Below are positions 8,630 to 44,153 of a stretch of 44,219 nt of DNA, in pieces. Numbering within the stretch: position 1 is the stretch's first letter; the number at the start of each line of letters is the position of its first letter. Location of the stretch: the NCBI GenBank assembly GCA_902773515.1, contig CACYET010000001.1:1-44219 (forward strand), read 5' to 3'. Origin of the DNA: an uncultured Eubacteriales bacterium. Its GTDB lineage: Bacteria > Bacillota > Clostridia > Christensenellales > Aristaeellaceae. The position numbers and the translations under genes are program-made. The notes under the pieces are model-generated. The model searched no databases. It was given only the letters and a program-made list of their open reading frames with translations, and was not told the DNA's origin.

Positions 8630-8665
8630 CCGCCAACCATGAGGAAACTCGTGGTTGGCTTATAT

Positions 8666-8742
8666 GCCGGCGTATCTCAGTTGGCTAGAGAATCCGGTTC
8701 ATACCCGGAGTGTCATTGGTTCGAATCCGATCGCCGGTACCA
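8666..8742 (+). tRNA. tRNA with CAT anticodon (elongator Met, or Ile2 if lysidine-modified)
   Basis: gccggcg...ccggttCATacccgg...GGTTCGAATCC...cgccggtACCA. A standard 7-bp acceptor stem is fully paired. Confidence 0.85.
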
Positions 8743-9786: not shown

Positions 9787-9871
9787 GCGCCTCGCCTCGC
9801 TTTCCGAATCCATTATACATCATTTCGACGGGAAGCGCCAGATAAAATAGCGTGAAATGCGGCAGCCGCTA

Positions 9872-9904
9872 TTCCTGTTCCCTGTTCCCTGTTCCCTCTC
9901 CCCT
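9872..9904. repeat. Heptad tandem repeat (TTCCCTG-type), family C
   Basis: ttcctgttccctgttccctgttccctctcccct with 7-nt period, in the divergent intergenic region. Confidence 0.75.
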
Positions 9905-9992
9905 ATTTCACCTTCCCTTGCTTTACGCCGCGCGACATCTATGCTATAATAGGCGCAACTGTATGATATCATCCCCGAAAGGATTGTTTACC

Positions 9993-11243: not shown

Positions 11244-11252
11244 TTGTCGACG

Positions 11253-11325
11253 TGTGAAATGGGGACGGTTCTCTTTTCACTTTTTCTCATGCAAAAATGT
11301 GAAAAGAGAACCGTCCCCGTTTCAC
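11253..11325. terminator. Very long hairpin (27-bp stem) between convergent genes; bidirectional terminator or palindromic element
   Basis: gtgaaatggggacggttctcttttcac (11253-11279) pairs with gtgaaaagagaaccgtccccgtttcac (11299-11325). There is one G-U position, and T/A runs in the loop. Confidence 0.7.
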
Positions 11326-11327
11326 GT

Positions 11328-12212: not shown

Positions 12213-12348
12213 GCGTCTTCCCCCCTTCTTTTGCGATATTGTACCATACAATGACCGTTCTGTGCAATGACATCGGCACTTTTTTACGATATAATTCAAG
12301 TATTCCGCCGGATGAGCGAGATCGATTTTCCGCAAAGGAAGGACGCCC

Positions 12349-19847: not shown

Positions 19848-19923
19848 TGTACAGATCCTTCGCTTCGCTCAGGATGACAACGACGAAAGCCTGTCATCCT
19901 GAGCGGAGCGAAGGATCTGTACA
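19848..19923. repeat. Family B palindromic element (76-bp near-perfect palindrome)
   Basis: tgtacagatccttcgcttcgctcaggatgaca...tgtcatcctgagcggagcgaaggatctgtaca. Confidence 0.9.
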
Positions 19924-26671: not shown

Positions 26672-27973
26672 TCAGATCCGGCACTCCGCCTCTCCGAGGT
26701 CCAGGCCCTCGTTGAACCTCCGGGCGTTTTCAAGGGTCTCGGCGGCGATGGCCTGCAGGGCTTCGCGGGTGAAGAACGCCTGGTGCGAGGTCATCACCAC
26801 GTTGGGGAACATCTGCAGCCGCGCCGTGACGTCGTTGTTCAGGAATTCGGTGGAGCGGTCGGTGTACACGTTGTCGTCCTCGCCCTCGTACACGTCCAGC
26901 CCCACGGCGTGGAACTTGCCGTTCTTGAGGGCCTCGATCAGCGCCTCGGTGTCGATCAGGCCGCCGCGCGCGGTGTTCACCAGCATGGCGGTGTCCTTCA
27001 TCCGGGCGATGGCCGCCGCGTCGATCAGGTGCCAGGTGCCGCCCGGGCCCGCGATCAGCGGCGCGTGCAGCGAGATCAGGTCCGCGCGCTCCAAGAGCTC
27101 GTCCCTGTCCACGTAGGTCAGCAGCCCCTCCTCCTCCAGCGCCGGGTTCGGGAAGGCGTCCCACGCGAGCACCGTCATGCCGAAGCCTTTGCAGATGCGG
27201 GCCATGCACTGGCCGATCTTGCCCGTGCCCAGGATGCCGGCCACCTTGTTGTGCAGGTCCACGCCCAGCAGGCCCGACAGCGCGAAGTTGTTGTCACGCA
27301 CCTTGTTCACGGCCTTGTGCAGGCGGCGGTTGGCGGTCATGATCAGGCTCATGGCGTGCTCGGCCACGGCGTAGGGCGAGTAGGCCGGCACGCGCGCCAC
27401 CTTGATGCCGCACTCCTTCGCGGCCTGCAGGTCCACGTTGTTGAAGCCCGCGCAGCGCAGCAGGATCAGCTTCACGCCGCAGTCCTTGAGCGTCTCCACC
27501 GCCTCGCGGGGCAACTCGTCGTTCACGAACACGCACACCGCGTCGAAGCCCCGCGCCAGGTTCGCCGTCTCCGGCGTCAGGCGGCAGCTGTAGTACTTGA
27601 TATCGCAGTTGTAGGTGCCCTCGCCGCGATCCTTCGCCAGCTCGCTGAAGAACAGGCGATCGTAGTCCTTGGTGCCGAAGAAGGCGATGCGCATCACGTC
27701 CGTCCGGCGCTTGTCCCGCAGCTTTTCGCACAGCACGCGGCGCACCTCGTTCAGCGCGGCCTGCTCGTCGCCGCCCTCGGCGACGATCTCCAGCACCGAG
27801 CCCTTCACGGCGTGCAGCGCCAATATCTCCAGCACGTTGGACCCGCTGGCGGATTTGCCGTTGTACCTGACGGTGATCTGCGAGGACAGGTTCACGCACG
27901 CCTGGGCCAGGAAGGCCGCGGGCCGCGCGTGCATCCCCAGCGTGTTTTGGACTTCAAAGGTCATCGTGGTCAT
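26672..27973 (-). CDS. Fusion protein: HPr-like PTS phosphocarrier domain (aa 1-85) plus D-lactate dehydrogenase (LdhA-type 2-hydroxyacid dehydrogenase, aa 94-433)
   Basis: N-terminus MTTMTFEVQNTLGMHARPAAFLAQ... has the His-15 motif G-x-HARPA. A linker RDKRRTDV leads to MRIAFFGTKDYD...LRCAGFNNVDL...GTGKIGQ...TSHQAFFT. There is no stop between the two parts. RBS AAGGAG lies 8 nt before the ATG at 27973. Confidence 0.85.
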   Translation of the reverse strand: MTTMTFEVQNTLGMHARPAAFLAQACVNLSSQITVRYNGKSASGSNVLEILALHAVKGSVLEIVAEGGDEQAALNEVRRVLCEKLRDKRRTDVMRIAFFGTKDYDRLFFSELAKDRGEGTYNCDIKYYSCRLTPETANLARGFDAVCVFVNDELPREAVETLKDCGVKLILLRCAGFNNVDLQAAKECGIKVARVPAYSPYAVAEHAMSLIMTANRRLHKAVNKVRDNNFALSGLLGVDLHNKVAGILGTGKIGQCMARICKGFGMTVLAWDAFPNPALEEEGLLTYVDRDELLERADLISLHAPLIAGPGGTWHLIDAAAIARMKDTAMLVNTARGGLIDTEALIEALKNGKFHAVGLDVYEGEDDNVYTDRSTEFLNNDVTARLQMFPNVVMTSHQAFFTREALQAIAAETLENARRFNEGLDLGEAECRI

Positions 27974-28056: not shown

Positions 28057-28132
28057 CGTACAGATTCTTCGCTTTGCTCAGAATGACAGGCGTGCCGCGG
28101 TGTCATCCTGAGCGCAGCGAAGGATCTGTACG
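28057..28132. repeat. Family B palindromic element between ptsI and the HPr::LDH gene
   Basis: cgtacagattcttcgctttgctcagaatgaca...tgtcatcctgagcgcagcgaaggatctgtacg. Confidence 0.9.
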
Positions 28133-31865: not shown

Positions 31866-32159
31866 ATCTCTTTTCCCCCTTACTTTGGTTCGCCGGCGGT
31901 CCGAGCATCATTTTGCAATGTATTCGTCATAACCACCATTGATTGATTCCTATTTTACTATATCCCGGCCGAATTGTAAAGCGCTTGGGCGCTTTTGTCT
32001 TGTTTTCGTTAAAGAACGCATACCATTGTTAACGTTTTCCGTGCCAAATCGGGGGTTGGCGCTTTACATACTTTACAGAATTGCAATCTACTGTTATAAT
32101 GCAGTCAGAGGGTCGGCCCTCGCATCCGATCAAAATCCATCCATCAAGGGGGAAAGACC

Positions 32160-33923
32160 ATGAAGAAACTGCTTTCCATCGTCCTCGCCGCCATACTGGT
32201 GCTGGCGCTCGGCGCGCTGGCCGAGGACGGCAAGATCACCTCGACCGGCGTCGGCCAGGGCATCGACGGAGACGTGAAGGTGCAGGTCGTCGCCGACGCC
32301 ACCACGATCTATTCCGTGGAGGTGCTCGAACAGAACGAGACGCCCGGCATCGGCTCCGTGGCCGTGGAACAGCTGCCCGGCCAGATCGTCGAGGCCAACA
32401 GCATCCTCGTGGACAGCATCTCCGGCGCGACCGTGACCAGCGACGCCATCAAGACGGCGGTGCGCCAGGCGCTCGAGGACGGCGGGCTGGACGTGTCCGT
32501 GTTCGAGGTGGAGCAGGCGGCCGCGGAGGTCGCCGAGAAGACGCCCGAGACGCTGGATTGCGACGTGGTGATCGTCGGCGCGGGCGGCGCGGGCCTGACC
32601 GCGGCGGTGCGCGCCAACCAGGCGGGCGCGAAGGTGCTCGTGCTGGAGAAGATGTCGTTCGTCGGCGGCAACAGCCTGAAGGCCTCCGGCGGCATGAACG
32701 CCGCGGGCACGAAGTTCCAGGAGGCGCTGGGCATCACCGACAGCGGCGTGCGGGAGTTCGTCGAGGACACGATGAACGGCGGCCACATGATCAACGACCT
32801 GGCCCTCGTGGTGACCATGTCGGAAAACAGCTCCGACGCCGTGGACTGGCTCGAATCCATCGGCGCGCCGCTGCCGAAGGTGGCGGCCACCGGCGGCACC
32901 GTGCACAAGTACCTGCACTCCCCGGAGGACGGCAGCCCCGTCGGCGCGTACCTGGTGGCCAAGCTGAACGAGGAAGTCGAGAAGCAGGGCATCCAGGTCA
33001 TGCTGAACACGAAGGCCACCGAGATCCTGACGGACGAGGGCTGCGCGGTGGGCGTGAAGGCCGAGGACGCCGAGCACGAATACACCATCAACGCCCACGC
33101 GGTCATACTCGCCACCGGCGGCTTCGGCTCGAACTTTGAGCTGATGACCAGCTTCAACCCGAGCCTGGCCAACGCGGTGACCACCAACCATCCCGGCGCC
33201 ACCGGCGACGGCATCCTGATGGCCGAGGCCATCGGCGCCGCCACCGTGGACATGGACCGCATCCAGCTGCATCCCACCGTGTACCAGGAGACCAGCACGC
33301 TGGTCTCGGAGAAGATGCGCTCGCTGGGCGCGATCCTGGTCAACCAGGAGGGCAAGCGCTTCTGCAACGACCTGTCCACCCGCGACGCCGTCTCCGCGGC
33401 GGAGCTGGAGCAGACCGGCGGCTACGCCTACATCATCTTCGACCAGAACCTGGTGGACCAGAACAAGTCCGCCAAGGAGTACATCAGCAAGGGCATGACC
33501 TCCACCGGCGAGACCTACGAGGAGCTGGCGAAGAACATGGGCCTCGAGGGCGACGCCGTGGCGGCCTTTGAAGAGACCATGGCCACCTGGAACGAGGCCG
33601 TGGCCACCGGCGAGGACAAGGAGTTCGGCCGCAACAACGGCATGGACGCCGACCTGTCCACCGCGCCCTACTACGCCATCAAGATCGCCCCCGGCATCCA
33701 CCACACGATGGGCGGCATCAAGATCGACACCGCCACGCAGGTGCTCGACACCGAAGGCAACGTGATCCCCGGCCTGTACGCGGCCGGCGAGACCACCGGC
33801 GGCGTGCACGGCGGCAACCGCATCGGCGGCAACGCCGTGTGCGACTTCGTGGTGTTCGGCCGCATCGCCGGCGAGAAGGCCGCGGCGTACGCGGAGACCT
33901 TCGCCCTGCAACCGGCGGCGTAA
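32160..33923 (+). CDS. Secreted flavoprotein reductase: FMN_bind (flavinylation) domain plus an FAD-dependent fumarate/urocanate-reductase-family catalytic domain
   Basis: Signal peptide MKKLLSIVLAAILVLALGALA. FMN_bind with DSISGATVTS (32421-32432). FAD fold DVVIVGAGGAGLTAA; HHTMGGI; GLYAAGETTGGVHGGNRIGGNA. Confidence 0.9.
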   Translation: MKKLLSIVLAAILVLALGALAEDGKITSTGVGQGIDGDVKVQVVADATTIYSVEVLEQNETPGIGSVAVEQLPGQIVEANSILVDSISGATVTSDAIKTAVRQALEDGGLDVSVFEVEQAAAEVAEKTPETLDCDVVIVGAGGAGLTAAVRANQAGAKVLVLEKMSFVGGNSLKASGGMNAAGTKFQEALGITDSGVREFVEDTMNGGHMINDLALVVTMSENSSDAVDWLESIGAPLPKVAATGGTVHKYLHSPEDGSPVGAYLVAKLNEEVEKQGIQVMLNTKATEILTDEGCAVGVKAEDAEHEYTINAHAVILATGGFGSNFELMTSFNPSLANAVTTNHPGATGDGILMAEAIGAATVDMDRIQLHPTVYQETSTLVSEKMRSLGAILVNQEGKRFCNDLSTRDAVSAAELEQTGGYAYIIFDQNLVDQNKSAKEYISKGMTSTGETYEELAKNMGLEGDAVAAFEETMATWNEAVATGEDKEFGRNNGMDADLSTAPYYAIKIAPGIHHTMGGIKIDTATQVLDTEGNVIPGLYAAGETTGGVHGGNRIGGNAVCDFVVFGRIAGEKAAAYAETFALQPAA

Positions 33924-33935
33924 AACCAGTCATGA

Positions 33936-33976
33936 CCCCCGCCCGGGCGAGCCGCGCACGCGGCTCGCCCGGGGGT
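33936..33976 (+). terminator. GC-rich hairpin after the reductase gene
   Basis: cccgggcgagccgcg-cac-gcggctcgcccggg. No clear T-run follows. Confidence 0.5.
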
Positions 33977-33989
33977 GTCACTTGATCCG

Positions 33990-34058
33990 GAAAGATTCTT
34001 CGCTTCGCTCAGAATGACACATCATGCCCGTCATCCTGAGCGGAGCGAAGGATCTTTC
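33990..34058. repeat. Family B palindromic element
   Basis: gaaagattcttcgcttcgctcagaatgaca...cgtcatcctgagcggagcgaaggatctttc. Confidence 0.9.
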
Positions 34059-34100
34059 TTCATTTCATCTAATAAAGCCATTTTTGCCTGTTAATTGTCG

Positions 34101-34129
34101 TTTACAAACCGCGATTAATATGTTAAAAT
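34101..34129 (+). promoter_or_regulatory. Candidate rnf operon promoter
   Basis: TTTACA 34101-34106, 17 nt, TAAAAT 34124-34129, in an AT-rich patch about 75 nt upstream of rnfC. Confidence 0.55.
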
Positions 34130-34203
34130 AATCGTGATACACTGTGTGCCGTCTATGCGCGACGGCGCGCGAGACCAAAAACATATGTGGAGGGGAGTCG
34201 AGA

Positions 34204-35556
34204 ATGGTGAAGCGCACCTTTCGCGGCGGCGTTCATCCCGACGGTCACAAGGAGCTGAGCCGGGAAGTGCCTCTGCGCGAATTCCTGCCGGCGGGAGAAA
34301 TGGTGTTCCCGCTGTCCCAGCACATCGGCAAGCCCGCCAAGCCCATCGTGAAGAAGGGCGACGCGGTGCTGGTCGGCCAGAGGATCGCGGAGGCGGACGG
34401 CTATGTGTCCGCGCACATCGCGTCCTCCTGCTCCGGCGTGGTCAAGGCCATCGAGAAGCGCCTGACGCTCATGGGCGCGTTGGCGGACTGCATCGTGGTG
34501 GAGAACGACGGCCAGTTCACGCCCGCCGAGGGCTTCGGCGAGCGCGAGGAGCAGGCGAGCCTGTCCAACGACGAGATCCTTCGCCGCATACAGGACGCCG
34601 GCGTGGTGGGCCTGGGCGGCGCGGGCTTCCCGACCCACGTGAAGCTCAAGCCGAAGGACCCCGCGGCCATCCGCTACGTCATCGCCAACGGCGCGGAGTG
34701 CGAGCCCTACCTGACCTGCAACGATCAATTGATGCGCGTCAAGGCGAACGAGATCGTGGAGGGGCTGGAGCTGGTGCTGCAGCTGTTCCCGAACGCCGAG
34801 GGCGTGATCGGCATCGAGGACAACAAGCCGGTGGCCATCGCCGCGATGAAGCAGGCCGCTCACGGCAAGCCCCGCCTGCGCGTGATGGAGCTGCAGACGA
34901 AGTACCCGCAGGGCGGCGAGCGCAGCCTGATCCAGGTGATCGCCGGGGTGGACTTCCCCATCTCGATGCTCCCGGCGGACGTGGGCTGCGTGGTGGACAA
35001 CGTGGGCACGCTCTACGCCATCCAGCGCGCCGTGCTCTACCGCGAGCCGCTGTTTTCCCAGTGCTTTACGCTCACCGGCGAGGCCGCGAAGAACCCCGGC
35101 AACTTCATCGTCCGCGACGGCACCTCGTTTGCGGAGCTGCTCGAGTTCGCGGGCGGCCTGAAGGACGGCGTGACGCTTAAAAAGGCGCTGGTCGGCGGCC
35201 CGATGATGGGCATCGCGCTGGGCAGCCTGGACGTGCCGATCCAGAAGCAGAACAACGGCCTGACGCTGATGGACGAGGACCCCGTGGAGCTGGCCGAGGC
35301 CCAGATGACGGCCTGCCTGCGCTGCGGGCGCTGCGCGAAGGTCTGTCCCGTGGGCCTGCTGCCCGAGCCGATGGCCGACGCCGCGCTCAGCAAGGACTAC
35401 GAGCGCTATGAAAAGAAGCTCTACGGCCTGGAGTGCATCCAGTGCGGCAGCTGCACCTACAACTGCCCGGCCAAGCGCCCCCTGATGCAGATCTTCAAGG
35501 AGGCCAAATCTGAAATACAGGCGCGCAAGCGCGCAGAGGCGGGAGGCACAAAATGA
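34204..35556 (+). CDS. rnfC: Rnf complex subunit C (NADH-binding/FMN, 2x[4Fe-4S])
   Basis: MVKRTFRGGVHPDGHKELS...GLGGAGFPTHVKL...ANGAECEPYLTCNDQLM...CLRCGRCAKVCP...CIQCGSCTYNCP. RBS GGAGGGGAG. Confidence 0.95.
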   Translation: MVKRTFRGGVHPDGHKELSREVPLREFLPAGEMVFPLSQHIGKPAKPIVKKGDAVLVGQRIAEADGYVSAHIASSCSGVVKAIEKRLTLMGALADCIVVENDGQFTPAEGFGEREEQASLSNDEILRRIQDAGVVGLGGAGFPTHVKLKPKDPAAIRYVIANGAECEPYLTCNDQLMRVKANEIVEGLELVLQLFPNAEGVIGIEDNKPVAIAAMKQAAHGKPRLRVMELQTKYPQGGERSLIQVIAGVDFPISMLPADVGCVVDNVGTLYAIQRAVLYREPLFSQCFTLTGEAAKNPGNFIVRDGTSFAELLEFAGGLKDGVTLKKALVGGPMMGIALGSLDVPIQKQNNGLTLMDEDPVELAEAQMTACLRCGRCAKVCPVGLLPEPMADAALSKDYERYEKKLYGLECIQCGSCTYNCPAKRPLMQIFKEAKSEIQARKRAEAGGTK

Positions 35557-37133
35557 ACAACGCGCTGAATATCTCCTCCAGCCCCCATGTAAGGGACAAG
35601 CGCACGACCGCGTACATGATGCGCGTCGTGCTGCTGGCGCTGATGCCCGCGACGGTCGTGGGCGTATGCAACTACGGCCTGCACGCGCTGCTGGTGGTGC
35701 TGGTAAGCGTCGCCGCGGCGGTGCTGAGCGAATTCGCGTTTGACAAGCTCTGCCACAAGCCGGACACCTGGAAGGACGGCAGCGCGGCGGTCACGGGCCT
35801 TCTGCTGGCGCTGTGCCTGTCGCCCCGGGTGCCGCTGACGATGCCGCTGCTGGGCAGCATGTTCGCGATCCTGATCGCCAAGTGCTGCTTCGGCGGCCTG
35901 GGCAAGAACTTCATCAACCCCGCCCTGGCCGGTCGGTGCTTCCTGCTGATCTCGTTCGGCAACCTGATGTCCACCTACAGAGTCGTAGACGGCGTGACCG
36001 CGGCCACCCCGGTGGCGGACCTGCTGGCCGGGAACCCGGTCAACGTCACGCGGATGTTCCTGGGCACCACGTCCGGCGTCATCGGCAGCTCCGCGCTGGC
36101 GCTGCTGGCGGGCGGCCTGGCGCTGTGGGCCCTGCAGATCATCCACGGCGAGATCTGCTTCTCGGTGCTGGGCACGTTCATACTGACGGTCGGGCTGTTC
36201 GGCGGCCAGGGCTTTGACCCCCGCTTCATCCTCGCCCACATCAGCGGCGGCGGCGTGCTGATGGCCGCGTTCTTCATGGCCACCGACTACGTCACCTCCC
36301 CCGCCACCCCGCTGGGCCAGCTGGTGTACGGCCTGCTGATCGGATTCCTCGGCGGCATCTTCCGCCTGTTCAGCGGCACCGCCGACTCCTTCAGCTACTG
36401 CGTGATCACCGGCAACCTGTTCGTGCCGCTGATCGACACCTATATCGTCTCCAAGCCCTACGCCTACCGGAAGGTCTCGCTGCTCAAGCAGCTGCGGGCC
36501 TCCGGCGAGCCCTGGTACAAGCGCGTGCCGCGCCCGGTGATCGTGCTGACGGCCATCGCCGCCATCGCGGGCCTGGCGCTCTCCGGCGTCTACTTCATGA
36601 CCAAGGACACCATCGACAACCAGAAGCGCGCCGCGCAGGCCGCCTCCTACAAGGCGGTGTGCCCGCTGGCGGACCACTTTGAGGCCGACGAAACCATCGA
36701 CAAGGCCGTGGCCGACCTGAACGGCGCCGTGTACGGCACCGACTTCGGGCGCGCCCACATCAACGAGGGCTTTGCGGCCCTGGACGAGGGCGGCAACAAC
36801 GTCGGCTACGCCTTCAGCGTCACCAGCGCCGACGGCTTTGACGGCAACGTCACGCTGGCCGTGGGCGTGGACAATGAAGGCGCGGTGACGGGCATCTCCT
36901 TCACCGAGCTGAACGAGACCCCCGGCATGGGCATGCGCGTGGACGAGCCGGAGTTCAAGGACCAGTTCACCGGCAAGGCCGTGTCGAAGTTCACGCTGAA
37001 CAAGGCGGGCGGCTCCACCGCGGACGATCAGATCGACAGCGTCTCCGGCGCGTCCACCACGTCCGGCGCGGTGGTCAACGCCGTCAACGCCGCCCTCGAC
37101 TTCTACAACAACACGGTGAAGGGGGGAGCCTGA
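35553..37133 (+). CDS. rnfD: Fused Rnf subunits D and G in one 526-aa ORF
   Basis: aa 1-~315 are RnfD (SSSPHVRD...GKNFINPALAGR...FFMATDYVTSP...VPLID). A TM helix VIVLTAIAAIAGLALSGVYF follows, then an RnfG FMN_bind domain ending DSVSGASTTS (37044-37055). There is no stop between the two parts. Confidence 0.88.
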   Translation: MNNALNISSSPHVRDKRTTAYMMRVVLLALMPATVVGVCNYGLHALLVVLVSVAAAVLSEFAFDKLCHKPDTWKDGSAAVTGLLLALCLSPRVPLTMPLLGSMFAILIAKCCFGGLGKNFINPALAGRCFLLISFGNLMSTYRVVDGVTAATPVADLLAGNPVNVTRMFLGTTSGVIGSSALALLAGGLALWALQIIHGEICFSVLGTFILTVGLFGGQGFDPRFILAHISGGGVLMAAFFMATDYVTSPATPLGQLVYGLLIGFLGGIFRLFSGTADSFSYCVITGNLFVPLIDTYIVSKPYAYRKVSLLKQLRASGEPWYKRVPRPVIVLTAIAAIAGLALSGVYFMTKDTIDNQKRAAQAASYKAVCPLADHFEADETIDKAVADLNGAVYGTDFGRAHINEGFAALDEGGNNVGYAFSVTSADGFDGNVTLAVGVDNEGAVTGISFTELNETPGMGMRVDEPEFKDQFTGKAVSKFTLNKAGGSTADDQIDSVSGASTTSGAVVNAVNAALDFYNNTVKGGA

Positions 37134-37134
37134 G

Positions 37135-37818
37135 ATGAACAAGTACGTTGAACGCCTCTACAACGGCGTGGTGAAGGAGAACCCCACGCTGATCCTGATG
37201 CTGGGCATGTGCCCCACGCTGGCGGTGTCCACCCGGGCCATGAACGGCATCGGCATGGGCCTGTCCACGATGGCGGTGCTGATCCTGTCCAACCTGGTGA
37301 TCAGCCTGCTGCGCAAGGTGATCCCGGACGAGGTGCGCCTGCCGGCCTACATCGTGGTGGTGGCCTCGCTGGTGACGGTGACGGAGCTGCTGATCGAGGC
37401 CTACCTGCCCTCGCTGTACGAGGCGCTGGGCATCTACATCCCGCTGATCGTCGTCAACTGCATCATCCTGGGCCGCGCCGAGGCCTACGCCAACAAGCAC
37501 ACGCCGCTCTTGTCCGTGATGGACGGCATCGGCATGGGCATCGGCTTCACGCTGGCGCTGACGCTGGCGGGCCTGATCCGCGAGCTGCTGGGCAACGGCA
37601 CCGCCTTCGGCGCGCAGATCCTGCCCAGCGGCATCGACCCCATCGGCATCTTCGTGCAGCCTCCGGGAGCCTTCCTGGTGCTGGCGCTGATCATCGCCGT
37701 GATGAACGCCATCGGCATCAAGTCCCGCCAGCGCGACCTGGTGGACGTGGGCTGTGACGGCGTGTGCGCGCGCTGCACCGCCGAGTGCAAAAAGTCCGGG
37801 GAGGTGAACGCCAAGTGA
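37135..37818 (+). CDS. rnfE: Rnf complex subunit E with a Cys-rich C-terminal tail
   Basis: ENPTLILMLGMCPTLAVS...GIYIPLIVVNCIILGRAEA; tail GCDGVCARCTAEC. Confidence 0.93.
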   Translation: MNKYVERLYNGVVKENPTLILMLGMCPTLAVSTRAMNGIGMGLSTMAVLILSNLVISLLRKVIPDEVRLPAYIVVVASLVTVTELLIEAYLPSLYEALGIYIPLIVVNCIILGRAEAYANKHTPLLSVMDGIGMGIGFTLALTLAGLIRELLGNGTAFGAQILPSGIDPIGIFVQPPGAFLVLALIIAVMNAIGIKSRQRDLVDVGCDGVCARCTAECKKSGEVNAK

Positions 37819-38393
37819 AGAGCCTGATACTGATCATCATCACCGGCGCTCTGATCAACAACGTGGTGCTCAATCAGTTCCTGGGCATCTGTTCGTTCCT
37901 GGGCGTCTCCAAGCAGATGAAGGCCTCGGCCTCGCTGGGCGGCGCGGTGATATTCGTCATCACGATCGCCTCCGCGGTCGCGAGCCTGCTGTACGACTAT
38001 GTGCTCGCGCCCCTGGGCATGGACTTCATGAAGACCATCGTGTTCATACTGGTCATCGCGGCGCTGGTGCAGATCGTGGAGATGTTCCTGAAGAAGACGT
38101 CCCCCGGCGTGTACAAGGCGCTGGGCATCTACCTGCCGCTGATCACCACGAACTGCGCCGTGCTGGGCGTGGCGCTGACCAACGTGCAGGACGGCTACAA
38201 CTTCATCGAAAGCGTGTTTTCCGGCTTCGGCACGGCCGTGGGCTTCACCCTCGCCATCGTGCTGCTGGCCAGCATCCGCTCCCGCATCCGCGAGGAGGAC
38301 ATCCCCGCCCCGCTGCGCGGCGCGCCGATCGTGCTGATCTCCGCGGCGCTGATGTCCATCGCCTTCATGGGCTTCTCCGGCCTGTCGTTCTGA
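37815..38393 (+). CDS. rnfA: Rnf complex subunit A
   Basis: GTG start overlaps the rnfE stop (GTGA) after GGGGAGG. NNVVLNQFLGICSFLGVS...GIYLPLITTNCAVLG. Confidence 0.9.
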   Translation: MKSLILIIITGALINNVVLNQFLGICSFLGVSKQMKASASLGGAVIFVITIASAVASLLYDYVLAPLGMDFMKTIVFILVIAALVQIVEMFLKKTSPGVYKALGIYLPLITTNCAVLGVALTNVQDGYNFIESVFSGFGTAVGFTLAIVLLASIRSRIREEDIPAPLRGAPIVLISAALMSIAFMGFSGLSF

Positions 38394-38406
38394 TGGAGGG
38401 ATCATC

Positions 38407-39201
38407 ATGCAGATCATAATCATTACAACGCTGGTGATCGCCGTCATCGGCATCGTGGTCGGCGCCGGACTGGTGTTTACCGGCAAGAAATTCCACGTGG
38501 ACGTAGATGAGCGCGAGAGCGCCGTGCGGGAATGCCTGCCCGGCAACAACTGCGGCGCGTGCGGCTACGCGGGCTGCGACGCACTGGCGGCGGCCATCGC
38601 CGCCGGGAACGCCTCGGTCAACGCCTGCCCGGTGGGCGGCGCGCCCGTGGCCCAGAAGATCGGCGAGATCATGGGCCAGAGCGCCGAGGCCGTGGAGGGC
38701 AAGGTCGCGTTCGTGCGCTGCAAGGGCAGCTGCGACGTGACCCACAACCAGGGCAACTACGTGGGCATGGACTGCCGAAGCGCGGTGCTCGCGGGCCTGA
38801 ACGTCACCGACTGCACCTACGGCTGCCTGGGCTTCGGCTCCTGCGCGGCGGTCTGCCCGCAGGACGCCATCCGCGTGGTGGACGGCGTGGCCATGGTCGT
38901 GCGCAAGAAGTGCGTGGGCTGCGGGCTGTGCGTCAAGGCGTGCCCGAGGGGCCTGATCGAGCTGGTGCCCGCGTCGAAGCGCGTGATCGTGCAGTGCTCC
39001 AACAAGGACCGGGGGCCGCAGGTCAAGAAGGTCTGCTCCGCCGGCTGCATCGGCTGCATGCTGTGCACCCGCCAGTGCGAATCCGACGCCATCCACGTGT
39101 CGAACAACCTGGCCAGCATCCAGTACGAGAACTGCACCCAGTGCGGCAAGTGCGCCGAGAAGTGCCCCGTCAAAGTCATCACCCCGCCGCCGGGCGTCTG
39201 A
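38407..39201 (+). CDS. rnfB: Rnf complex subunit B (membrane-anchored polyferredoxin)
   Basis: N-terminal TM helix, CLPGNNCGACGYAGCDALA, then several CxxCxxCxxxCP clusters. Confidence 0.93.
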   Translation: MQIIIITTLVIAVIGIVVGAGLVFTGKKFHVDVDERESAVRECLPGNNCGACGYAGCDALAAAIAAGNASVNACPVGGAPVAQKIGEIMGQSAEAVEGKVAFVRCKGSCDVTHNQGNYVGMDCRSAVLAGLNVTDCTYGCLGFGSCAAVCPQDAIRVVDGVAMVVRKKCVGCGLCVKACPRGLIELVPASKRVIVQCSNKDRGPQVKKVCSAGCIGCMLCTRQCESDAIHVSNNLASIQYENCTQCGKCAEKCPVKVITPPPGV

Positions 39202-39283
39202 TCGGCTGATAAAGCGTCCGGCAAATATCCGCGTCCGGGGCGTAAACCCGCCCGGACCGACATGAAGAAGGGATGATATAGTA

Positions 39284-41512
39284 ATGGATAAGAAGACCAT
39301 TGTCAGGCTGGTCGTCGTGGGACTGGCCCTGATCCTGACGACCGTCTTTGCCTGCGGCTTCACGAAGGGCGGCCCGGTGACCTACCAGATCCCCGGCCCC
39401 TACACCGCCGAGAGCACCAACAACTTCAGCACCGTCCAGGTGGAGATGACCATTCAGGACGAGAAGATCACCGACTGCGCGATCACCTCGTCCGGCGACA
39501 GCGACCTGCTGAACGACAGCATCCGCGCCGAGTGGGCCCAGTCCATCGTGGACAACCAGACCGCCGAGAACGACGTGATCTCCGGCGCGACCCTCGTCTA
39601 CTCCGCCGCGTCCGTCCAGGAGGCCTCGAACGACATCCTCGTCCAGGCGGGCCTGCGCGAGCCGACCGCCGAAGCGGAGCCTGTCGAAACTGACACCGAG
39701 GGCGGAGAGGCCGAGAGCGCCGACGCCGAAACCGGCGAGGCCGACATCGGCGAGGCCGCGCCGCCAACAGAGGCCGCGGCGCTGAACGACGGCACCTACA
39801 CCGTCCAGAAGACCACCGATTTCAGCACCATCGACGTGGAGATCACCGTCGAGAACGGCGCGATCACGAAGGCCGCCGTCGCCTCCGAGGGCGCGAACGA
39901 CCTGCTCACCGACGACCATCGCAGCGCCTGGGCGGACCAGATCGTGGAAAAGCAGGCCGTCGACGCCGTCTCCGGCGTGACCGTCTCCTCGAACGCCGTG
40001 CAGGAAGCCGTGGCCGAGCTGCTGGCCCAGGCCTCCGGCGAGGCCCCGGCCGGGGAAGCGAGCGCGGACGCGGGCGAAAAGGAGGCCGATCCGCGCCTGG
40101 CGAGCATCCTGCCCGCGATCGTGACCACGATGGGCGACAACCGCGACAACAGCTACGTGACCGACTACCTGGAGCAGGACCCGTACCTCGTGAACATCTA
40201 CGAGGGCTACGGCTTCGCCAAGGACTACGGCAGCGCCCGCGGCCACGAGTACACGCTGGAGGACGTCGCCAAGACCCAGCGCCCGCACCCCAAGGCCAAC
40301 TGCCTGACCTGCAAGACGCCCGATCTGCACAAGATGATCGAGGAGCAGGGCGTGGCGGTCTACTCGATGCCCTTTGACGAGGTCATGCCCCAGATGACGC
40401 AGAACGTGAGCTGCTACACCTGCCACGGGGCCGACGACGGCAACGACGGCGAGATCGTGATCACCCACCGCTACGTGACCGAAGCACTGGCCAATAACGC
40501 CGAAGCCATCAAGCCCGCGACGCTGTCCTGCGGCCAGTGCCACATCGAATACTACTTCACCCCCCAGGACAGCGAGGCCATGATGCCCTACCACAGCGTG
40601 GAGCAGATGACCCCCGAGGCGATCCTGGCCTACTACGACAACTTCAACTTCGCCGACTGGACCCAGGAGAGCACCGGCACCCGCCTGCTGAAGGCCCAGC
40701 ACCCCGAGATGGAGACCGTGCTGCAGGGCAAGCACGCGGCGTTCCTCAGCTGCGCGGACTGCCACATGCCCACCGAAAAGACCGAGGACGGCACCGAGTA
40801 CCTCAGCCACAAGCTGGTCAGCCCGCTGGAGAGCGAGGCGCTGCTGGAGAGCTGCGCGAAGTGCCATGGCGACACCGACATGACCGCGTTCGTCAAGGGC
40901 ATCCAGGAGCGCGTGACCGCCCGCGAGACGGAGGTCGGCAACCGCCTGAGCGCGATGAAGGACAAGCTGGCCGAGGCCGTGGCCTCCGGCACCTGGAGCG
41001 AGGACGACCTGAACGCCGTGCGCAAGCTGCACCGCGAGGCCCAGTGGTTCTTTGACTTCTGCTACGTGGAGAACAGCGAGGGCGCGCACAACACCGAGCT
41101 GGCGTACCGCTGCCTGGACACCGCCGACCAGAAGATCGACGAGGCCCTGGCGCTGCTGGGCGAGAACGTGGAGAGCGCCGCGCCCGCCGCGGAGCCCGCG
41201 AAGTCCGGCAACCTCACCGACGGCATCTACACCGCCGAGGCCGTCAACGACTTCAGCACCGTCGACGTCTACGCCGCCGTTCGCAACGGCCTGATCGACG
41301 ACTGCGTGATCTCCTCCTCCGGCGACAACGACCTGCTGACCGACGAGCTCCGCTATGAATGGGGCAGGGCCGTCGTCGAGGCTCAGTCCGCCGACACCGA
41401 CGCCATCACCGGCGCGTCCCTGACGTTCTCCGCCGCCTCCGTCAAGGAGGCCGTGGACGACATCCTCGCCCGCGCCGCGGGCTCCGAAGCCGGGGAGAAG
41501 GGCGCGCAGTAA
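39284..41512 (+). CDS. nrfA: Lipoprotein pentahaem cytochrome c nitrite reductase (NrfA) fused to three FMN_bind domains (two N-terminal, one C-terminal)
   Basis: Signal plus VFAC lipobox-like Cys24. FMN_bind repeats carry SGAT (39581-39592), SGVT (39971-39982) and TGAS (41408-41419). Haem motifs: CLTCK 40301-40315, CYTCH 40412-40426, CGQCH 40529-40543 (CHIEYYF), CADCH 40751-40765, CAKCH 40853-40867. SARGH and LKAQHPE blocks are present. Confidence 0.9.
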   Translation: MDKKTIVRLVVVGLALILTTVFACGFTKGGPVTYQIPGPYTAESTNNFSTVQVEMTIQDEKITDCAITSSGDSDLLNDSIRAEWAQSIVDNQTAENDVISGATLVYSAASVQEASNDILVQAGLREPTAEAEPVETDTEGGEAESADAETGEADIGEAAPPTEAAALNDGTYTVQKTTDFSTIDVEITVENGAITKAAVASEGANDLLTDDHRSAWADQIVEKQAVDAVSGVTVSSNAVQEAVAELLAQASGEAPAGEASADAGEKEADPRLASILPAIVTTMGDNRDNSYVTDYLEQDPYLVNIYEGYGFAKDYGSARGHEYTLEDVAKTQRPHPKANCLTCKTPDLHKMIEEQGVAVYSMPFDEVMPQMTQNVSCYTCHGADDGNDGEIVITHRYVTEALANNAEAIKPATLSCGQCHIEYYFTPQDSEAMMPYHSVEQMTPEAILAYYDNFNFADWTQESTGTRLLKAQHPEMETVLQGKHAAFLSCADCHMPTEKTEDGTEYLSHKLVSPLESEALLESCAKCHGDTDMTAFVKGIQERVTARETEVGNRLSAMKDKLAEAVASGTWSEDDLNAVRKLHREAQWFFDFCYVENSEGAHNTELAYRCLDTADQKIDEALALLGENVESAAPAAEPAKSGNLTDGIYTAEAVNDFSTVDVYAAVRNGLIDDCVISSSGDNDLLTDELRYEWGRAVVEAQSADTDAITGASLTFSAASVKEAVDDILARAAGSEAGEKGAQ

Positions 41513-41563
41513 GCGCATGGCAGGCCCGCGCAGGAGCGTCCCTGCATAATCCGTCCCCTGCGT

Positions 41564-41724
41564 CCAAATGGCCTTCCCCTATGGGGAAGGTGGCCGAGCA
41601 GGTGCCAGAGGCACCGTCCGCGAGGTCGGATGAGGTCGGGCAGCGCTGAGCCTATCGCTGTACCCAGTCGACCTCATCCGTCAGCCCTGCGGGCTGCCAC
41701 CTTCCCCAGAGGGGAAGGCTTTTG
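41564..41724. repeat. Family A palindromic element between nrfA and resB
   Basis: Left arm 41564-41637 (ccaaatggccttcccctatggggaaggtggcc...ggatgaggtc). Right arm 41669-41724 (gacctcatcc...caccttccccagaggggaaggcttttgg). Confidence 0.85.
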
Positions 41725-41737
41725 GATGCGCGCCCGT

Positions 41738-41766
41738 TCCCCTACTCCCTACTCCCTGCTCCCTAA
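41738..41766. repeat. Heptad repeat (TACTCCC-type), family C, abutting the resB start codon
   Basis: ttcccctactccctactccctgctcccta. Confidence 0.75.
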
Positions 41767-41768
41767 CC

Positions 41769-43043
41769 ATGAACACCATCAAACGCATCTACAAATTCAT
41801 AGCCTCCATGCGCTTCGCCATCATACTTCTGGTGGCGCTGGCGCTCGCCTGCTCCATCGGCAGCCTGGTCACGCAGGGCCAGAGCTACGACTGGTACGCC
41901 CAGCGCTACTCCGAACGCGCGGCGGCGCTGATCCTGGCGCTGCGGCTGGACGACGCCTTCCACAGCGCGTGGTTCATCGCCATCACGGCCTTCCTGTGCC
42001 TGAACCTGACGCTGTGCAACCTGACGCGCCTGCCCCGGCTGATCCGACGCACGCGGGCGGAGGGCCGGCCCGAGGGCGCGCTCGAATCCGCAGGCGACGT
42101 GTCCCGCGAGGGCGTCATCGACCCGAAGGCCGCGTTTGCCCGGCTGCACATGCCCGGGCCCGTCGCCTGCCAGACGGCGGACGGCCGCGACGCGCTGTTC
42201 GCGTCGAAGCACCGCGCGGGCCTCTGGGGCGCGTGGGTGTGCCACCTGGGGATCCTCCTGCTGATCCTGGGCTTCGGCCTGGGGCAGATGACGCAGGCGC
42301 AGTACACGGTCTACGGCGTGCCCGGAGACGAAAAGCCGATCGGCGACACCGGCTACACGCTCAGGATCGAGGACTTCACCGTGGAAAGGCGCGAGGACGA
42401 CTCCGTGGCGCAGTACACCGCGCAGATCAGCGTTTCGGGCGGCGACGCCCGGCAGAGCGCCGAGATCAGCGTGAACAACCCCGCCCGGCTGTTCGGCATG
42501 AAGTTCTACCAAAACTCCGTCGGCTGGGCGACGCGCGTGAACGTGCTGGAGGACGGCAAGCCCCTGCAGAGCGCCGTGATCTGCGCCGGGGAGTTCTTGC
42601 CCGTCGAGGACAAGCCGGAGCTGGTGGTCTACCTGAACGCCTTTTACCCGGACTACGCGATGGTCCCGGGCGTGGGGCCCTCCAGCGCCTCCGAGAAGCT
42701 CAACAACCCGGCGTGGCTCTACTCGGTGTACTACCAGGGCCAGCTGTTGGGCATGAACGCGCTGATGGCGGGCGAGGAATTGACCATCGACGCATACACC
42801 GTCACGTTCACCGAGCCGCAGAACTACACGCTGATCCAGATCAAGCGCGACCGCTTCACGTGGATGGCGCTGGCAGGCGGCCTCGCCACGATGCTGGGCC
42901 TGCTGCTGGCCTTCTACCTCCAGCCCGCGAAGGTCTGGGCCGTCCGCGAGCCGGACGGCCGCTGGACGCTGCGCGGCGCATGCAAGAAGGGCGGAGCGAT
43001 ATGGAAGGATCGATTTGACAACGCGACAGGACAAAAGTTTTGA
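41769..43043 (+). CDS. resB: Cytochrome c biogenesis protein ResB/CcsB (system II)
   Basis: MNTIKRIYKFIASMRFAIILLVALALACSIGSLVTQG, a large extracytoplasmic loop and a C-terminal TM helix. No Shine-Dalgarno upstream. Confidence 0.85.
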   Translation: MNTIKRIYKFIASMRFAIILLVALALACSIGSLVTQGQSYDWYAQRYSERAAALILALRLDDAFHSAWFIAITAFLCLNLTLCNLTRLPRLIRRTRAEGRPEGALESAGDVSREGVIDPKAAFARLHMPGPVACQTADGRDALFASKHRAGLWGAWVCHLGILLLILGFGLGQMTQAQYTVYGVPGDEKPIGDTGYTLRIEDFTVERREDDSVAQYTAQISVSGGDARQSAEISVNNPARLFGMKFYQNSVGWATRVNVLEDGKPLQSAVICAGEFLPVEDKPELVVYLNAFYPDYAMVPGVGPSSASEKLNNPAWLYSVYYQGQLLGMNALMAGEELTIDAYTVTFTEPQNYTLIQIKRDRFTWMALAGGLATMLGLLLAFYLQPAKVWAVREPDGRWTLRGACKKGGAIWKDRFDNATGQKF

Positions 43044-43178
43044 GAGTTTAGAGTTGAGAGTTTAGATTGATTGGCTTCCCGATCGCAAGCAAGCCCTCGA
43101 AAAAAGCGGCATGAATCAAAACAAATCCGTCAGGATTTGCACCTCAACTCCACTCTCAACTCTCAACTCTAAACTCTC
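43042..43178. repeat. Inverted pair of heptad-repeat tracts (GAGAGTT / AACTCTC type) flanking about 77 nt, between resB and ccsA
   Basis: gagagtttagagttgagagtttag (43042-43065) and ctcaactccactctcaactctcaactctaaactctc (43143-43178). Confidence 0.8.
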
Positions 43179-43201
43179 TTAACTCCCAAAGGAGACTAAA
43201 C

Positions 43202-44017
43202 ATGCTACAAGTCGAAAACACCCTCTTCACCCTCGTCATGCTGCTGTATTTCGCGGCGATGGCGCTGTACTTCGCGTTCATCGCCGTCAAGAAGGACGGC
43301 GTGGCCAGGGCGGCGGTGGGCCTGCAGATCGCGGGCCTCGCGCTGCACACGGCGGCGCTCGTGTGCCGGGGCATCGGCGCGGGGCGGCTGCCGCTGACGA
43401 ACCAGTACGAGTTCGCCACCTCGTTCGCCTGGGGGCTGTGCCTAGTGAGCCTGGCGTTCGTGATCCGCTTTCGCTTCCCGGTGCTGGGCGCGTTCGCCTC
43501 GCCGGTCACATTCCTGATCATCGGCTACGCCGCCATGCAGAGCAGGGAGGTCAAGAACCTGATGCCCGCGCTGCGCAGCAATTGGCTGGGCTTTCACGTG
43601 TCCACGGCCATCATCGCCTACGGCGCGTTCGGCGTGTCGTTCGTGCTGGGCGTGATCTTCCTGCTGCGCGACAGGATGCGCGCGCGCGGCTTCATGGACC
43701 AGCACATCCCGGGCCGCGAAAAGCTGGACGTGATCGCCTATCGGAGCGTGTCGCTGGGGCTGCTGTTTTTGACGTTCACGATCATCACCGGGGCCATCTG
43801 GGCCGAGCGCGCCTGGGGCAGCTATTGGTCGTGGGACCCGAAGGAGACCTGGTCGCTGGTTACGTGGATCATCTATTCCGCCTACCTGCACCTGCGCATC
43901 CGCCGCGGCTGGCAGGGCCGCGCCGCCGCGATCTTCGCCGTGATCGGCTTCGTCTGCGTGGTGTTCACCTACATCGGCGTGAACACGCTCCTCCCGGGCG
44001 TGCACAGCTACGCATGA
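43202..44017 (+). CDS. ccsA: Cytochrome c biogenesis protein CcsA/ResC (haem-handling, WWD domain)
   Basis: WAERAWGSYWSWDPKETWSLVTW (W-rich motif) plus conserved His residues. RBS AAGGAG. Confidence 0.9.
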   Translation: MLQVENTLFTLVMLLYFAAMALYFAFIAVKKDGVARAAVGLQIAGLALHTAALVCRGIGAGRLPLTNQYEFATSFAWGLCLVSLAFVIRFRFPVLGAFASPVTFLIIGYAAMQSREVKNLMPALRSNWLGFHVSTAIIAYGAFGVSFVLGVIFLLRDRMRARGFMDQHIPGREKLDVIAYRSVSLGLLFLTFTIITGAIWAERAWGSYWSWDPKETWSLVTWIIYSAYLHLRIRRGWQGRAAAIFAVIGFVCVVFTYIGVNTLLPGVHSYA

Positions 44018-44074: not shown

Positions 44075-44153
44075 GAAGATCCTTCGCTACGCTCAGGATG
44101 ACAGGGTTTGCATCGCCCAAACGTTGTCATCCTGAACGAAGTGAAGGATCTTT
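44075..44153. repeat. Family B palindromic element
   Basis: agaagatccttcgctacgctcaggatgaca...tgtcatcctgaacgaagtgaaggatcttt. Confidence 0.85.

Follow-up and report, generated by a model that had tools for sequence, protein, structure and literature searches.

A conserved rnf-nrfA gene block of rumen and gut Clostridia and the possible supply of an extracytoplasmic pentahaem nitrite reductase by Rnf

Electron outlets of Rnf and electron inlets of NrfA in described systems

The window analysed here, positions 1 to 44,219 of contig CACYET010000001.1 of an uncultured Eubacteriales bacterium (Aristaeellaceae), contains between positions 32160 and 44017 a block of nine genes, in which a complete rnf operon with fused rnfD and rnfG is followed by the genes of a NrfA-type nitrite reductase and of a ResB/CcsA pair for cytochrome c biogenesis, and is preceded by the gene of a flavin-tagged fumarate-reductase-like enzyme. 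The arrangement is far beyond chance, since it recurs in about 70 species, and on balance we consider it probable that rnfC-rnfDG-rnfE-rnfA-rnfB-nrfA-resB-ccsA forms one conserved functional module in which NrfA would be fed by Rnf.

The electron path of Rnf runs from RnfB through the [2Fe-2S] cluster of RnfA/E to the FMN of RnfG, and from there by way of RnfD and RnfC to NAD+, the translocation of ions being tied to the RnfA/E step (PMC12174285). The FMN of RnfG/NqrC lies on the periplasmic side, where it shuttles between RnfAE and RnfD, is mobile and is not fully buried; the outward orientation of the RnfG flavin, which a first, sequence-only reading of this DNA had stated, is established structurally (PMC12174285). 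The closest precedent for an electron outlet is archaeal: the rnf operon of Methanosarcina acetivorans includes the gene of the multihaem cytochrome MmcA, through which electrons leave Rnf (PMC11024163). Like our locus, it places a multihaem cytochrome c gene in the rnf operon, the product of which acts at the outer face and brings electrons to acceptors other than NAD+ (PMC11024163, PMC12174285). MmcA differs from NrfA in being a conduit to methanophenazine or Fe(III) and not a substrate-reducing enzyme, and it has neither FMN_bind domains nor adjacent ccsBA genes. It is a member of the octahaem tetrathionate reductase lineage, which is related to the NrfA-type cytochromes. The comparison is a functional analogy only, because NrfA is not a family-level homologue of MmcA. 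In Desulfovibrio, the dhcA-rnfCDGEAB-apbE cluster likewise has a multihaem cytochrome c gene adjoining rnf and co-expressed with it, for which a periplasmic electron exchange has been proposed; unlike NrfA, DhcA is a c3-type decahaem carrier encoded upstream of rnfC, is thought to feed Rnf and is not an enzyme, and dhcA mutants have no fitness defect on ethanol, formate or H2 (PMC4841214). This adjacency is a weaker parallel than the archaeal one, by analogy with which the best reading of our locus is that NrfA would be an output module of Rnf, as MmcA is in Methanosarcina.

Quinol oxidation, by NrfH or by NrfBCD, is regarded as the source of electrons for respiratory nitrite ammonification. 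The NrfA of our block shares with NrfHA of Wolinella and Desulfovibrio and with NrfABCD of E. coli the CxxCK and four CxxCH motifs, the catalytic Arg/Tyr/His and the Ca-site motifs, together with a predicted extracytoplasmic position and the requirement for a cytochrome c maturation system. It differs from them in that no NrfH or NrfB/C/D was found nearby and in that its gene lies in an rnf operon; furthermore, the rnf-linked NrfAs depart from the canonical enzymes by an N-terminal membrane helix that is combined with a conserved PLTRxD(I/V)xY segment or with FMN_bind domains. A NrfH-less NrfA with a single transmembrane helix, the membrane donor of which is stated to be unknown, has been described in the quinone-free Gram-positive acetogen Natranaerofaba carboxydovora; unlike ours, its gene lies in a truncated nap locus and not in an rnf operon, and no FMN_bind domain is reported (PMC8359318).

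Extracytoplasmic FMN_bind domains bearing the [S/T]GA[S/T] motif of ApbE are found on the terminal reductases of the flavin-based extracellular electron transfer (EET) of Listeria (FrdA, PplA, Ndh2, EetAB, DmkAB), as are multi-FMN_bind "beads on a string" and the very FMN_bind plus FAD_binding_2 architecture of our fumarate-reductase-like enzyme (Meheust et al. 2021, PMC8238504). Our system differs from that of Listeria by its co-encoded donor, a full six-subunit Rnf, and by its tagged reductase, the haem enzyme NrfA; the combination of a full Rnf with a FMN_bind-tagged NrfA was not found in the main text or the accessible supplements of PMC8238504. The two-subunit NQR/RNF-like systems, in which the Nqr/Rnf path is one-way, from the cytosol through an outward FMN_bind domain to extracytosolic acceptors (Meheust et al. 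2021; PMC10979944), are another likeness. They consist of a NqrB/RnfD-like subunit fused to a NAD-binding domain and of a RnfG-like protein, and have no RnfD flavinylation site, whereas the Rnf of the window keeps six Rnf functions and both flavinylation motifs. Our full-text literature search, which did not cover subscription-only papers, returned no description of a rnf-nrfA operon or of a FMN_bind-NrfA. The block would encode an Rnf with a cytochrome output module and attached flavinylated extracytoplasmic reductases.

The rnfC-to-ccsA block and its conservation

The genes of the block are the following (GC3, G+C content at third codon positions; aa, amino acids).

32160-33923, plus strand: reductase of 587 aa, with signal peptide, FMN_bind and FAD_binding_2
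34204-35556, plus strand: rnfC, with RnfC_N, Complex1_51K, SLBB and Fer4 (Pfam); TIGR01945 score 489.8 against a cut-off of 246
35553-37133, plus strand: rnfD-rnfG fusion (rnfDG) of 526 aa, with NQR2_RnfD_RnfE at aa 7-303 and FMN_bind at aa 428-516
37135-37818, plus strand: rnfE (Pfam); TIGR01948 score 246.1 against a cut-off of 213.4
37815-38393, plus strand: rnfA (Pfam), 192 aa; TIGR01943 score 259.6 against a cut-off of 229.3
38407-39201, plus strand: rnfB, with FeS domain and several Fer4 (Pfam); TIGR01944 score 111.7 against a cut-off of 68.7
39284-41512, plus strand: nrfA, 742 aa, with Cytochrom_C552 at aa 289-634 and three FMN_bind domains
41769-43043, plus strand: resB/ccsB of system II cytochrome c biogenesis; Pfam ResB, E = 1.9e-54; GC3 = 0.93
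43202-44017, plus strand: ccsA, haem-handling subunit of system II; Cytochrom_C_asm, E = 2.7e-55; TIGR03144 score 265.4 against a cut-off of 187.6

The nine co-oriented genes over 12 kb that the sequence-only reading had listed are all present, as confirmed by Pfam, NCBIfam and PDB sequence matches; their GC3 is 0.92-0.97 in a window of 65% G+C. The rnf junctions, described there as overlapping or tight, measure -4 nt (rnfC/rnfDG), +1 (rnfDG/rnfE), -4 (rnfE/rnfA, the GTG start of rnfA overlapping the rnfE stop codon) and +13 (rnfA/rnfB), and are followed by +82 nt between rnfB and nrfA. The 192-aa length of RnfA is that of its relatives. The rnfC reading frame opens at 34144, probably too early, and the ATG at 34204 is preceded by a GGAGGGGAG motif. 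The longest open reading frame (ORF) over resB, 41630-43018 on the plus strand, was rejected as being in the wrong frame; this arginine- and proline-rich ORF of 462 aa is a shadow ORF of the kind typical of high-G+C DNA, by which longest-ORF gene calling would be misled.

The models for RnfC, D, G, E, A and B all exceed the NCBIfam cut-offs, the six functions being encoded together, and the predicted activity is that of a ferredoxin:NAD+ oxidoreductase with Na+/H+ translocation. RnfC is the NADH/FMN-binding subunit with two [4Fe-4S] clusters, and RnfB the polyferredoxin subunit of the ferredoxin side. RnfDG aligns to the RnfD and RnfG of the C. tetanomorphum and A. woodii structures (7zc6, 9eri). 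In it, the membrane domain of RnfD is joined by a basic linker on the cytoplasmic side to a single transmembrane helix, after which comes a FMN_bind domain that faces outward; the flavinylation motif of its RnfD part is DGVTAATP, the counterpart of DGVTTATP in 7zc6_D, and that of its RnfG part is SGAS. The system II biogenesis genes are both present, and the CcsA product carries the tryptophan-rich motif WGSYWSWDPKE.

One genome of each species was scanned with a NrfA profile, which gave 79 loci; with the window added, these make 80 sources. All 79 come from rumen or gut Clostridia-type metagenome-assembled genomes (MAGs), the closest from rumen "Clostridiales", Christensenellales and Oscillospiraceae MAGs. 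A placement among the Coriobacteriia (Eggerthella-like), which the 65% G+C had suggested, was rejected on account of these closest loci. A tblastn search with the window proteins found the order rnfC, rnfDG, rnfE, rnfA, rnfB, nrfA, resB, ccsA wherever the contig was long enough. In 72 loci the sequence extends 1.5 kb or more ahead of nrfA, and in 69 of them rnfB precedes nrfA; the distance from the rnfB stop to the nrfA start has a median of 40.5 nt and is below 100 nt in 63 of the 72. The co-conservation of nrfA with rnf, which had been put forward as a check, is thus strongly positive. Since the flanks vary among the loci and no other family recurs widely (in ORF clustering, every further family was confined to about 13 of the 80 sources at most), the block from rnfC to ccsA is the conserved unit. 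The carriers have a host G+C of 40 to 68%, and in a comparison of block and flanks made as a test of horizontal transfer the G+C of the block follows that of the host (r = 0.85, mean excess +0.02), with an excess suggestive of transfer in a few low-G+C hosts.

The co-conservation in this lineage of a cytochrome c gene inside the rnf operon is seen through NrfA and also through RnfDG. Indeed, three of the four loci picked via RnfDG (67-81% identity) have nrfA after rnfB (P0226, P0127 and P0170), and the fourth, P0163, has in the nrfA slot a 620-aa gene that carries no Pfam annotation and is truncated by the end of the contig. A more distant NrfA, of 51% identity, is again rnf-linked. Furthermore, the pairwise distances of NrfA correlate with the distances of RnfC, RnfDG and RnfB (r = 0.66-0.75, Mantel p = 0.001), and the maturation gene ccsA follows NrfA about as closely (r = 0.69).

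In one locus, L085, small toxin-antitoxin-type genes (DUF2442; DUF2281 plus PIN) at 12130-12570 and 15574-16163 interrupt the rnfB-nrfA and the resB-ccsA junctions, and the remaining gene order is kept.

Flavin domains, the fumarate-reductase-like enzyme and surrounding signals

The haem motifs of NrfA, C340LTCK, C377..H381, C416..H420, C490..H494 and C524..H528, vary little or not at all among 22 homologues; the protein aligns to 3ubr, 1gu6 and 1fs7 with the catalytic and Ca-site motifs RGH, CHIEYYF and KAQHPE kept, and its Cytochrom_C552 score (Pfam) is 267.9 against a cut-off of 24.1. It is laid out as an N-terminal transmembrane helix or lipobox, a FMN_bind domain, an acidic linker, a second FMN_bind domain, a linker, the pentahaem core and a third FMN_bind domain. 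These three domains, located with a home-built hidden Markov model of FMN_bind at aa 37-122, 169-250 and 645-731, carry the flavinylation motifs S100GAT, S230GVT and T709GAS, the first and last canonical and the second a variant. In the AlphaFold model of NrfA, used only to delimit the FMN_bind domains and the disordered linkers, the predicted local distance difference test (pLDDT) is 80-90 for the three domains and below 35 for the disordered acidic linkers. Three proteins of the window have FMN_bind domains, NrfA three, RnfDG one and the reductase one, and from the N-terminal helix or signal peptide of all three we infer that these domains lie outside the cytoplasm.

The relatives show that this decoration is optional. 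About 50 rnf-linked NrfAs are plain proteins of about 430 aa without FMN_bind, and about 25 carry one to six FMN_bind domains at the N-terminus, the C-terminus or both. The sequence-only reading proposed that electrons could hop from flavin to flavin between RnfG and the reductases; because some 50 orthologous operons, the majority, encode a NrfA without FMN_bind, an obligatory hop fails as a general mechanism, and the flavin hop would be a lineage-specific elaboration. The Rnf-NrfA link appears older and broader than the flavin decoration, since plain NrfAs prevail and the decorated forms occur in scattered clusters (at least four to five separate NrfA clusters), and FMN_bind domains seem to have been added several times to rnf-linked NrfA. 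Their number changes over very short evolutionary time, since P0001 (locus L001) of a sister genome, 97% identical to the window NrfA, has its C-terminal FMN_bind domain tandem-duplicated (836 vs 742 aa). The motif [ST]G[AV][ST] is present in 86 of the 98 FMN_bind domains of the relatives, in canonical form in 58 and as [ST]GVT in 28, and 12 are without it. The plain NrfAs possess an N-terminal hydrophobic helix and a kept juxtamembrane segment, of consensus MYHLKNRGDLGPLTRxDIxY, which is a candidate docking motif.

This juxtamembrane segment (N-terminal 30-70 aa, for example in L082, 11691-12974) is absent from all the FMN_bind-decorated NrfAs. In locus L061, at 9764-12214, the slot after rnfB is occupied by a tandem NrfA-NrfA fusion of 817 aa with two Cytochrom_C552 regions.

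The enzyme encoded ahead of rnfC has a N-terminal signal peptide, MKKLLSIVLAAILVLALGALA, a FMN_bind domain at aa 34-106 with the flavinylation motif SGAT, and a FAD_binding_2 domain at aa 135-560 (Pfam). It matches the flavin domain of Shewanella flavocytochrome c3 (Fcc3; PDB match to 1p2h_A) with E = 1.5e-119; the HPT, R..GAILVN, HHTMGG and NR.GGNA motifs are aligned between the two, the positions equivalent to Fcc3 H365, R402, H504 and R545, which serve in fumarate binding and proton delivery, are kept, and the score exceeds the NCBIfam flavocytochrome c equivalog cut-off (552 vs 542). The protein is thus probably an extracytoplasmic fumarate reductase with the architecture of Listeria FrdA and a Fcc3-type FAD domain. 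Its gene accompanies the module only sporadically, in about 10 of the 80 loci. In two loci, the reductase and NrfA are fused as one protein directly after rnfB:

L048, 755-4414, and L059, 8147-11068: fusion of FMN_bind (three copies or one), FAD_binding_2 and full NrfA

These fusions would be two terminal reductases in one polypeptide. In L029, the reductase gene lies between rnfB and nrfA, along with tatC. The fusions and the L029 arrangement support, as links of the Rosetta-stone type, a shared electron supply. The sequence-only reading had placed the reductase in the same module; its separate unit in the window and linkage in some 10 of 80 loci speak against this, and the two reductase-NrfA fusions speak for a shared electron supply.

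The signals found around these genes are listed below (z, folding energy relative to shuffled sequences).

32072-32100, plus strand: promoter-like site before the reductase, TTTACA-17-TATAAT with TG, 11/12 matches
33933-33975, plus strand: G+C-rich hairpin right after the reductase stop, -42 kcal/mol, z = -5.8, 0 of 200 shuffles as good
34101-34129, plus strand: promoter-like site in an A+T-rich patch upstream of rnfC, TTTACA-17-TAAAAT with TG, 10/12 matches
39202-39283, plus strand: rnfB-nrfA spacer of 82 nt, with the Shine-Dalgarno-like stretch GAAGAAGGGATG before the nrfA ATG
41560-41720, no strand: large palindrome in the 256-nt nrfA-resB spacer, -82.9 kcal/mol, z = -5.6
43040-43185, no strand: second large palindrome, in the 158-nt resB-ccsA spacer, -56 kcal/mol, z = -8.1
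19854-19917, 28063-28126, 33994-34054 and 44078-44150, no strand: palindromic repeat ("family B element"), four copies against 0 expected

The region contains six promoter-like sites against 1.5 expected. The hairpin at 33933-33975, likely a terminator or RNA end, and the promoter-like site at 34101-34129 separate the reductase from rnfC, and with its own promoter-like site and hairpin the reductase gene appears to be a transcription unit of its own in the window. The family B element after the reductase, noticed in the sequence-only reading, proved real, and the promoter-like A+T-rich patch that this reading placed before rnfC holds the site at 34101-34129. Its remark that no convincing terminator separates rnfB from nrfA also holds, because the spacer folds no better than shuffles (z = -0.26) and its plus strand has no promoter-like site. 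The repeat is an inverted pair of approximately 25-mers, GTCATCCTGAGCG.AGCGAAGGATC, around a short loop; eight half-sites form the four palindromes of the window, always after gene ends, with a hairpin of about 30 bp (z = -8.7). It resembles repetitive extragenic palindromes or miniature inverted-repeat transposable elements (REP/MITE) and could serve as a terminator or RNA stabiliser, and its copies at 33994-34054 and 44078-44150 bracket rnfC to ccsA. The palindromes of the nrfA-resB spacer, with a terminator-like end at 41700-41718, and of the resB-ccsA spacer are unrelated to this repeat; in the relatives both spacers are short, and the window palindromes therefore appear to be genome-specific insertions.

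No riboswitch or leader was found in the block with Rfam, the sole matches in the window being two tRNAs at 8553-8739. These tRNA genes (8553-8626 and 8666-8739) follow a low-G+C island (window 6001-8739; 51% vs about 64%), possibly DNA acquired at a tRNA site, which holds the genes of a TetR regulator and of a double-GNAT acetyltransferase. On the minus strand, at 26672-27973, a HPr domain (phosphocarrier of the phosphotransferase system, PTS) is fused to a D-2-hydroxyacid dehydrogenase, an uncommon domain pairing; the gene adjoins those of PTS enzyme I and of an EIIBCA permease.

Electron supply of NrfA and its significance

The gene content, catalytic motifs, operon structure and conservation computed above suggest a path in which the complete Rnf would supply electrons to an extracytoplasmic, membrane-anchored pentahaem nitrite reductase, matured by its dedicated CcsBA pair. 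The electrons would enter from reduced ferredoxin at RnfB and/or from NADH at RnfC, and arrive at the covalent FMN of the RnfG domain on the outer membrane face, where a part of them would exit to NrfA rather than going back to RnfD and RnfC. In most species, the transfer would go straight to a plain NrfA, which its N-terminal helix and conserved juxtamembrane segment would keep at the complex; in the lineage of the window, it would pass through ApbE-type flavinylated FMN_bind domains carried by flexible linkers on both flanks of the haem core. NrfA would then use six electrons to turn nitrite into ammonium. Since the translocation of Na+/H+ is coupled to the half of Rnf that leads from RnfB through RnfA/E to RnfG, the ferredoxin route may still pump ions, which would make it a quinone-free ferredoxin:nitrite respiratory chain. 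The fumarate-reductase-like enzyme with its FMN_bind domain would probably draw on the same flavin relay of the outer face. In the fullest form of this proposal, a seven-component Rnf-NrfA supercomplex would be an ion-pumping ferredoxin (and NADH):nitrite oxidoreductase, that is, a one-operon respiratory chain without quinone or quinol dehydrogenase, widespread in uncultured rumen and gut Clostridia, with FMN_bind strings as an add-on relay or store and an outlet that also serves fumarate-reductase-type flavoenzymes; we offer this form tentatively, as somewhat short of an even chance.

It is rather unlikely, though a possibility of some weight, that the path from Rnf to NrfA is real and serves for detoxification or as an electron sink, with nitrite, NO, hydroxylamine or sulfite being removed without net ion translocation. 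NrfA enzymes indeed reduce NO, hydroxylamine and sulfite besides nitrite. Electrons moving outward and protons consumed outside would oppose the membrane potential, and nitrite in the rumen is transient and toxic, which has a bearing on 3-nitrooxypropanol (3-NOP) and nitrate feeding (PMC12918512). On the other hand, every operon keeps a complete Rnf, the ion-coupling RnfA/E/B half included, and the potential span from ferredoxin to nitrite, taken from standard potentials, would leave ample energy for pumping.

Other donors were sought in the neighbourhood. Neither in the window nor in the 79 genome loci (+/-10 kb) is there a second ORF with at least two CxxCH motifs besides NrfA; since NrfA is the sole one, no NrfH, NrfB or other cytochrome partner lies nearby. 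Among the genes called in the 44-kb window, families of NrfC/D-like, Ndh2, EetA/B, DmkA/B and PplA-like proteins were not found, nor were those of menaquinone synthesis and ApbE. The absence of NrfH, Ndh2 and EetAB/DmkA-like genes claimed in the sequence-only reading accordingly holds for the window, where no quinol-oxidising partner (NrfH, or NrfB with NrfCD) is encoded with nrfA, and as regards NrfH/NrfB-type multihaem cytochromes it extends to the 79 loci. ApbE, which any functional Rnf needs, is encoded close to the module in no more than a few loci (among them those of a close relative, L083 and L010), and this adjacency is not conserved.

That the FMN_bind domains are fed by a Listeria-type chain, running from Ndh2 through demethylmenaquinone and EetA/EetB to PplA, or else by free flavin shuttles, in place of Rnf, seems to us very unlikely. 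In Listeria, that chain serves FMN_bind-tagged extracellular reductases of this type (PMC8238504, PMC10979944), and the reductase of the window has its own promoter-like site and hairpin. Against such a feed, Ndh2, EetA, EetB, DmkA/DmkB and PplA are as little among the families recurring in the related loci as in the window, and the only FMN_bind proteins of these loci besides NrfA are RnfDG and occasional reductases; moreover, it would leave the FMN_bind-free majority of rnf-linked NrfAs without a donor.

The main rival, in our judgement unlikely, is co-regulation without direct transfer: Rnf would be an ordinary ferredoxin:NAD+ ion pump, nrfA-resB-ccsA would share its operon only to couple the expression of redox balancing and of nitrite reduction, and NrfA would be fed by an unlinked membrane donor, either a quinol dehydrogenase or another transmembrane carrier. 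It draws on the comparison with ordinary operons. The RnfD-RnfG fusion, considered as a mark of a dedicated nitrite-Rnf, was ruled out as such, the fusion being also present in ordinary rnf operons without nrfA. Several other fused RnfDG clusters have 34-44% identity to the window RnfDG, and none of the three contexts examined (0/3) contains nrfA. Marvinbryantia formatexigens DSM 14469, with a Lachnospiraceae-type rnf, has the same subunit order and the RnfD-RnfG fusion (about 44% identity); unlike our block, these operons have no nrfA-resB-ccsA, and the slot after rnfB is filled by apbE-NusG_II in two of the three (rnfC-DG-E-A-B-apbE-NusG_II, M. formatexigens included) and by degV in the third. 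The position after rnfB therefore tolerates different genes. As it holds apbE-NusG_II in ordinary operons and remnants of these genes lie near some modules, the Rnf of our block may simply be a housekeeping ferredoxin:NAD+ pump whose operon has taken up nrfA-ccsBA, at a position that permits it, for the sake of co-regulation. The remnants fit an origin from ordinary Rnf and leave the electron path undecided. An alignment of nrfA-linked with ordinary RnfDG showed no clade-specific insertion or deletion and substitutions only, for example KCCFGG vs KQLFGG.

As regards the Rnf proteins themselves, the nrfA-linked RnfD share the cysteine motifs KLCHKPDTW, AKCCFGG, EICFSV and SFSYCVI, and the ordinary fused RnfDG have no cysteine there (for example VKQLFGG). 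The ordinary fused-RnfDG operons (L086, 6699-8055; L088, 11747-13164; L087, 5590-6488) have Hpre_diP_synt_I upstream; apbE and a NusG_II-domain gene follow rnfB in L086 and L088, and a NusG_II gene lies upstream in L087. NusG_II genes also adjoin the rnf-nrfA modules of L081, L083 and L045.

Besides the cargo of the ordinary operons and the unchanged framework of RnfDG, several points weigh against a supply of NrfA by Rnf. The evidence for it is gene order alone, and we know of no bacterial Rnf that hands electrons to an external partner. Three related loci (L053, L078 and L080) have nrfA-ccsBA away from rnf, toxin-antitoxin and other insertions lie between rnfB and nrfA in some loci, ApbE or NusG_II genes lie near some nrfA-linked operons, and in the window strong palindromes split nrfA, resB and ccsA. 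Unlike the canonical enzymes, the window NrfA reaches only 215.8 bits with the NCBIfam NrfA equivalog NF008339, far below the cut-off of 595, and represents a divergent subfamily of the fold and not the proteobacterial equivalog; its haem core is of low confidence in the AlphaFold model (mean pLDDT 61; core mostly below 50). MmcA, finally, is absent from Bacteria according to Gupta et al. (PMC11024163). Co-regulation meets obstacles of its own: in the approximately 80 loci, the surrounding 10 kb show no conserved gene that could encode a donor, the gap of about 40 nt between rnf and nrfA, kept over host G+C contents of 40-68%, is tighter than loose co-regulation requires, and co-regulation alone leaves unexplained the repeated gain of FMN_bind domains and the reductase-NrfA fusions after rnfB.

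In conclusion, the rnf-nrfA operon suggests an undescribed means of respiring or detoxifying nitrite, which may need no quinone. The electron source of NrfH-less NrfA in quinone-free Gram-positive anaerobes such as Natranaerofaba is an acknowledged gap (PMC8359318), and the conserved operon is a concrete candidate answer to it. Its carriers are rumen Clostridia, in contrast to the Prevotella and Bacteroides to which rumen nrfA is usually attributed (PMC12918512), and the way in which nitrite is handled decides how safe nitrate and 3-NOP feeding is and how far it lowers methane. Furthermore, the natural series that leads from plain NrfA through forms with one to six FMN_bind domains to the reductase-NrfA fusions and the NrfA-NrfA tandem is material for the study of flavin relays grafted onto haem enzymes. 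To our knowledge, a role of Rnf as a respiratory entry-and-exit complex has so far been shown only for the archaeal Rnf-MmcA. The transfer of electrons from Rnf to NrfA would extend the bacterial Rnf from a ferredoxin:NAD+ pump to such a complex.

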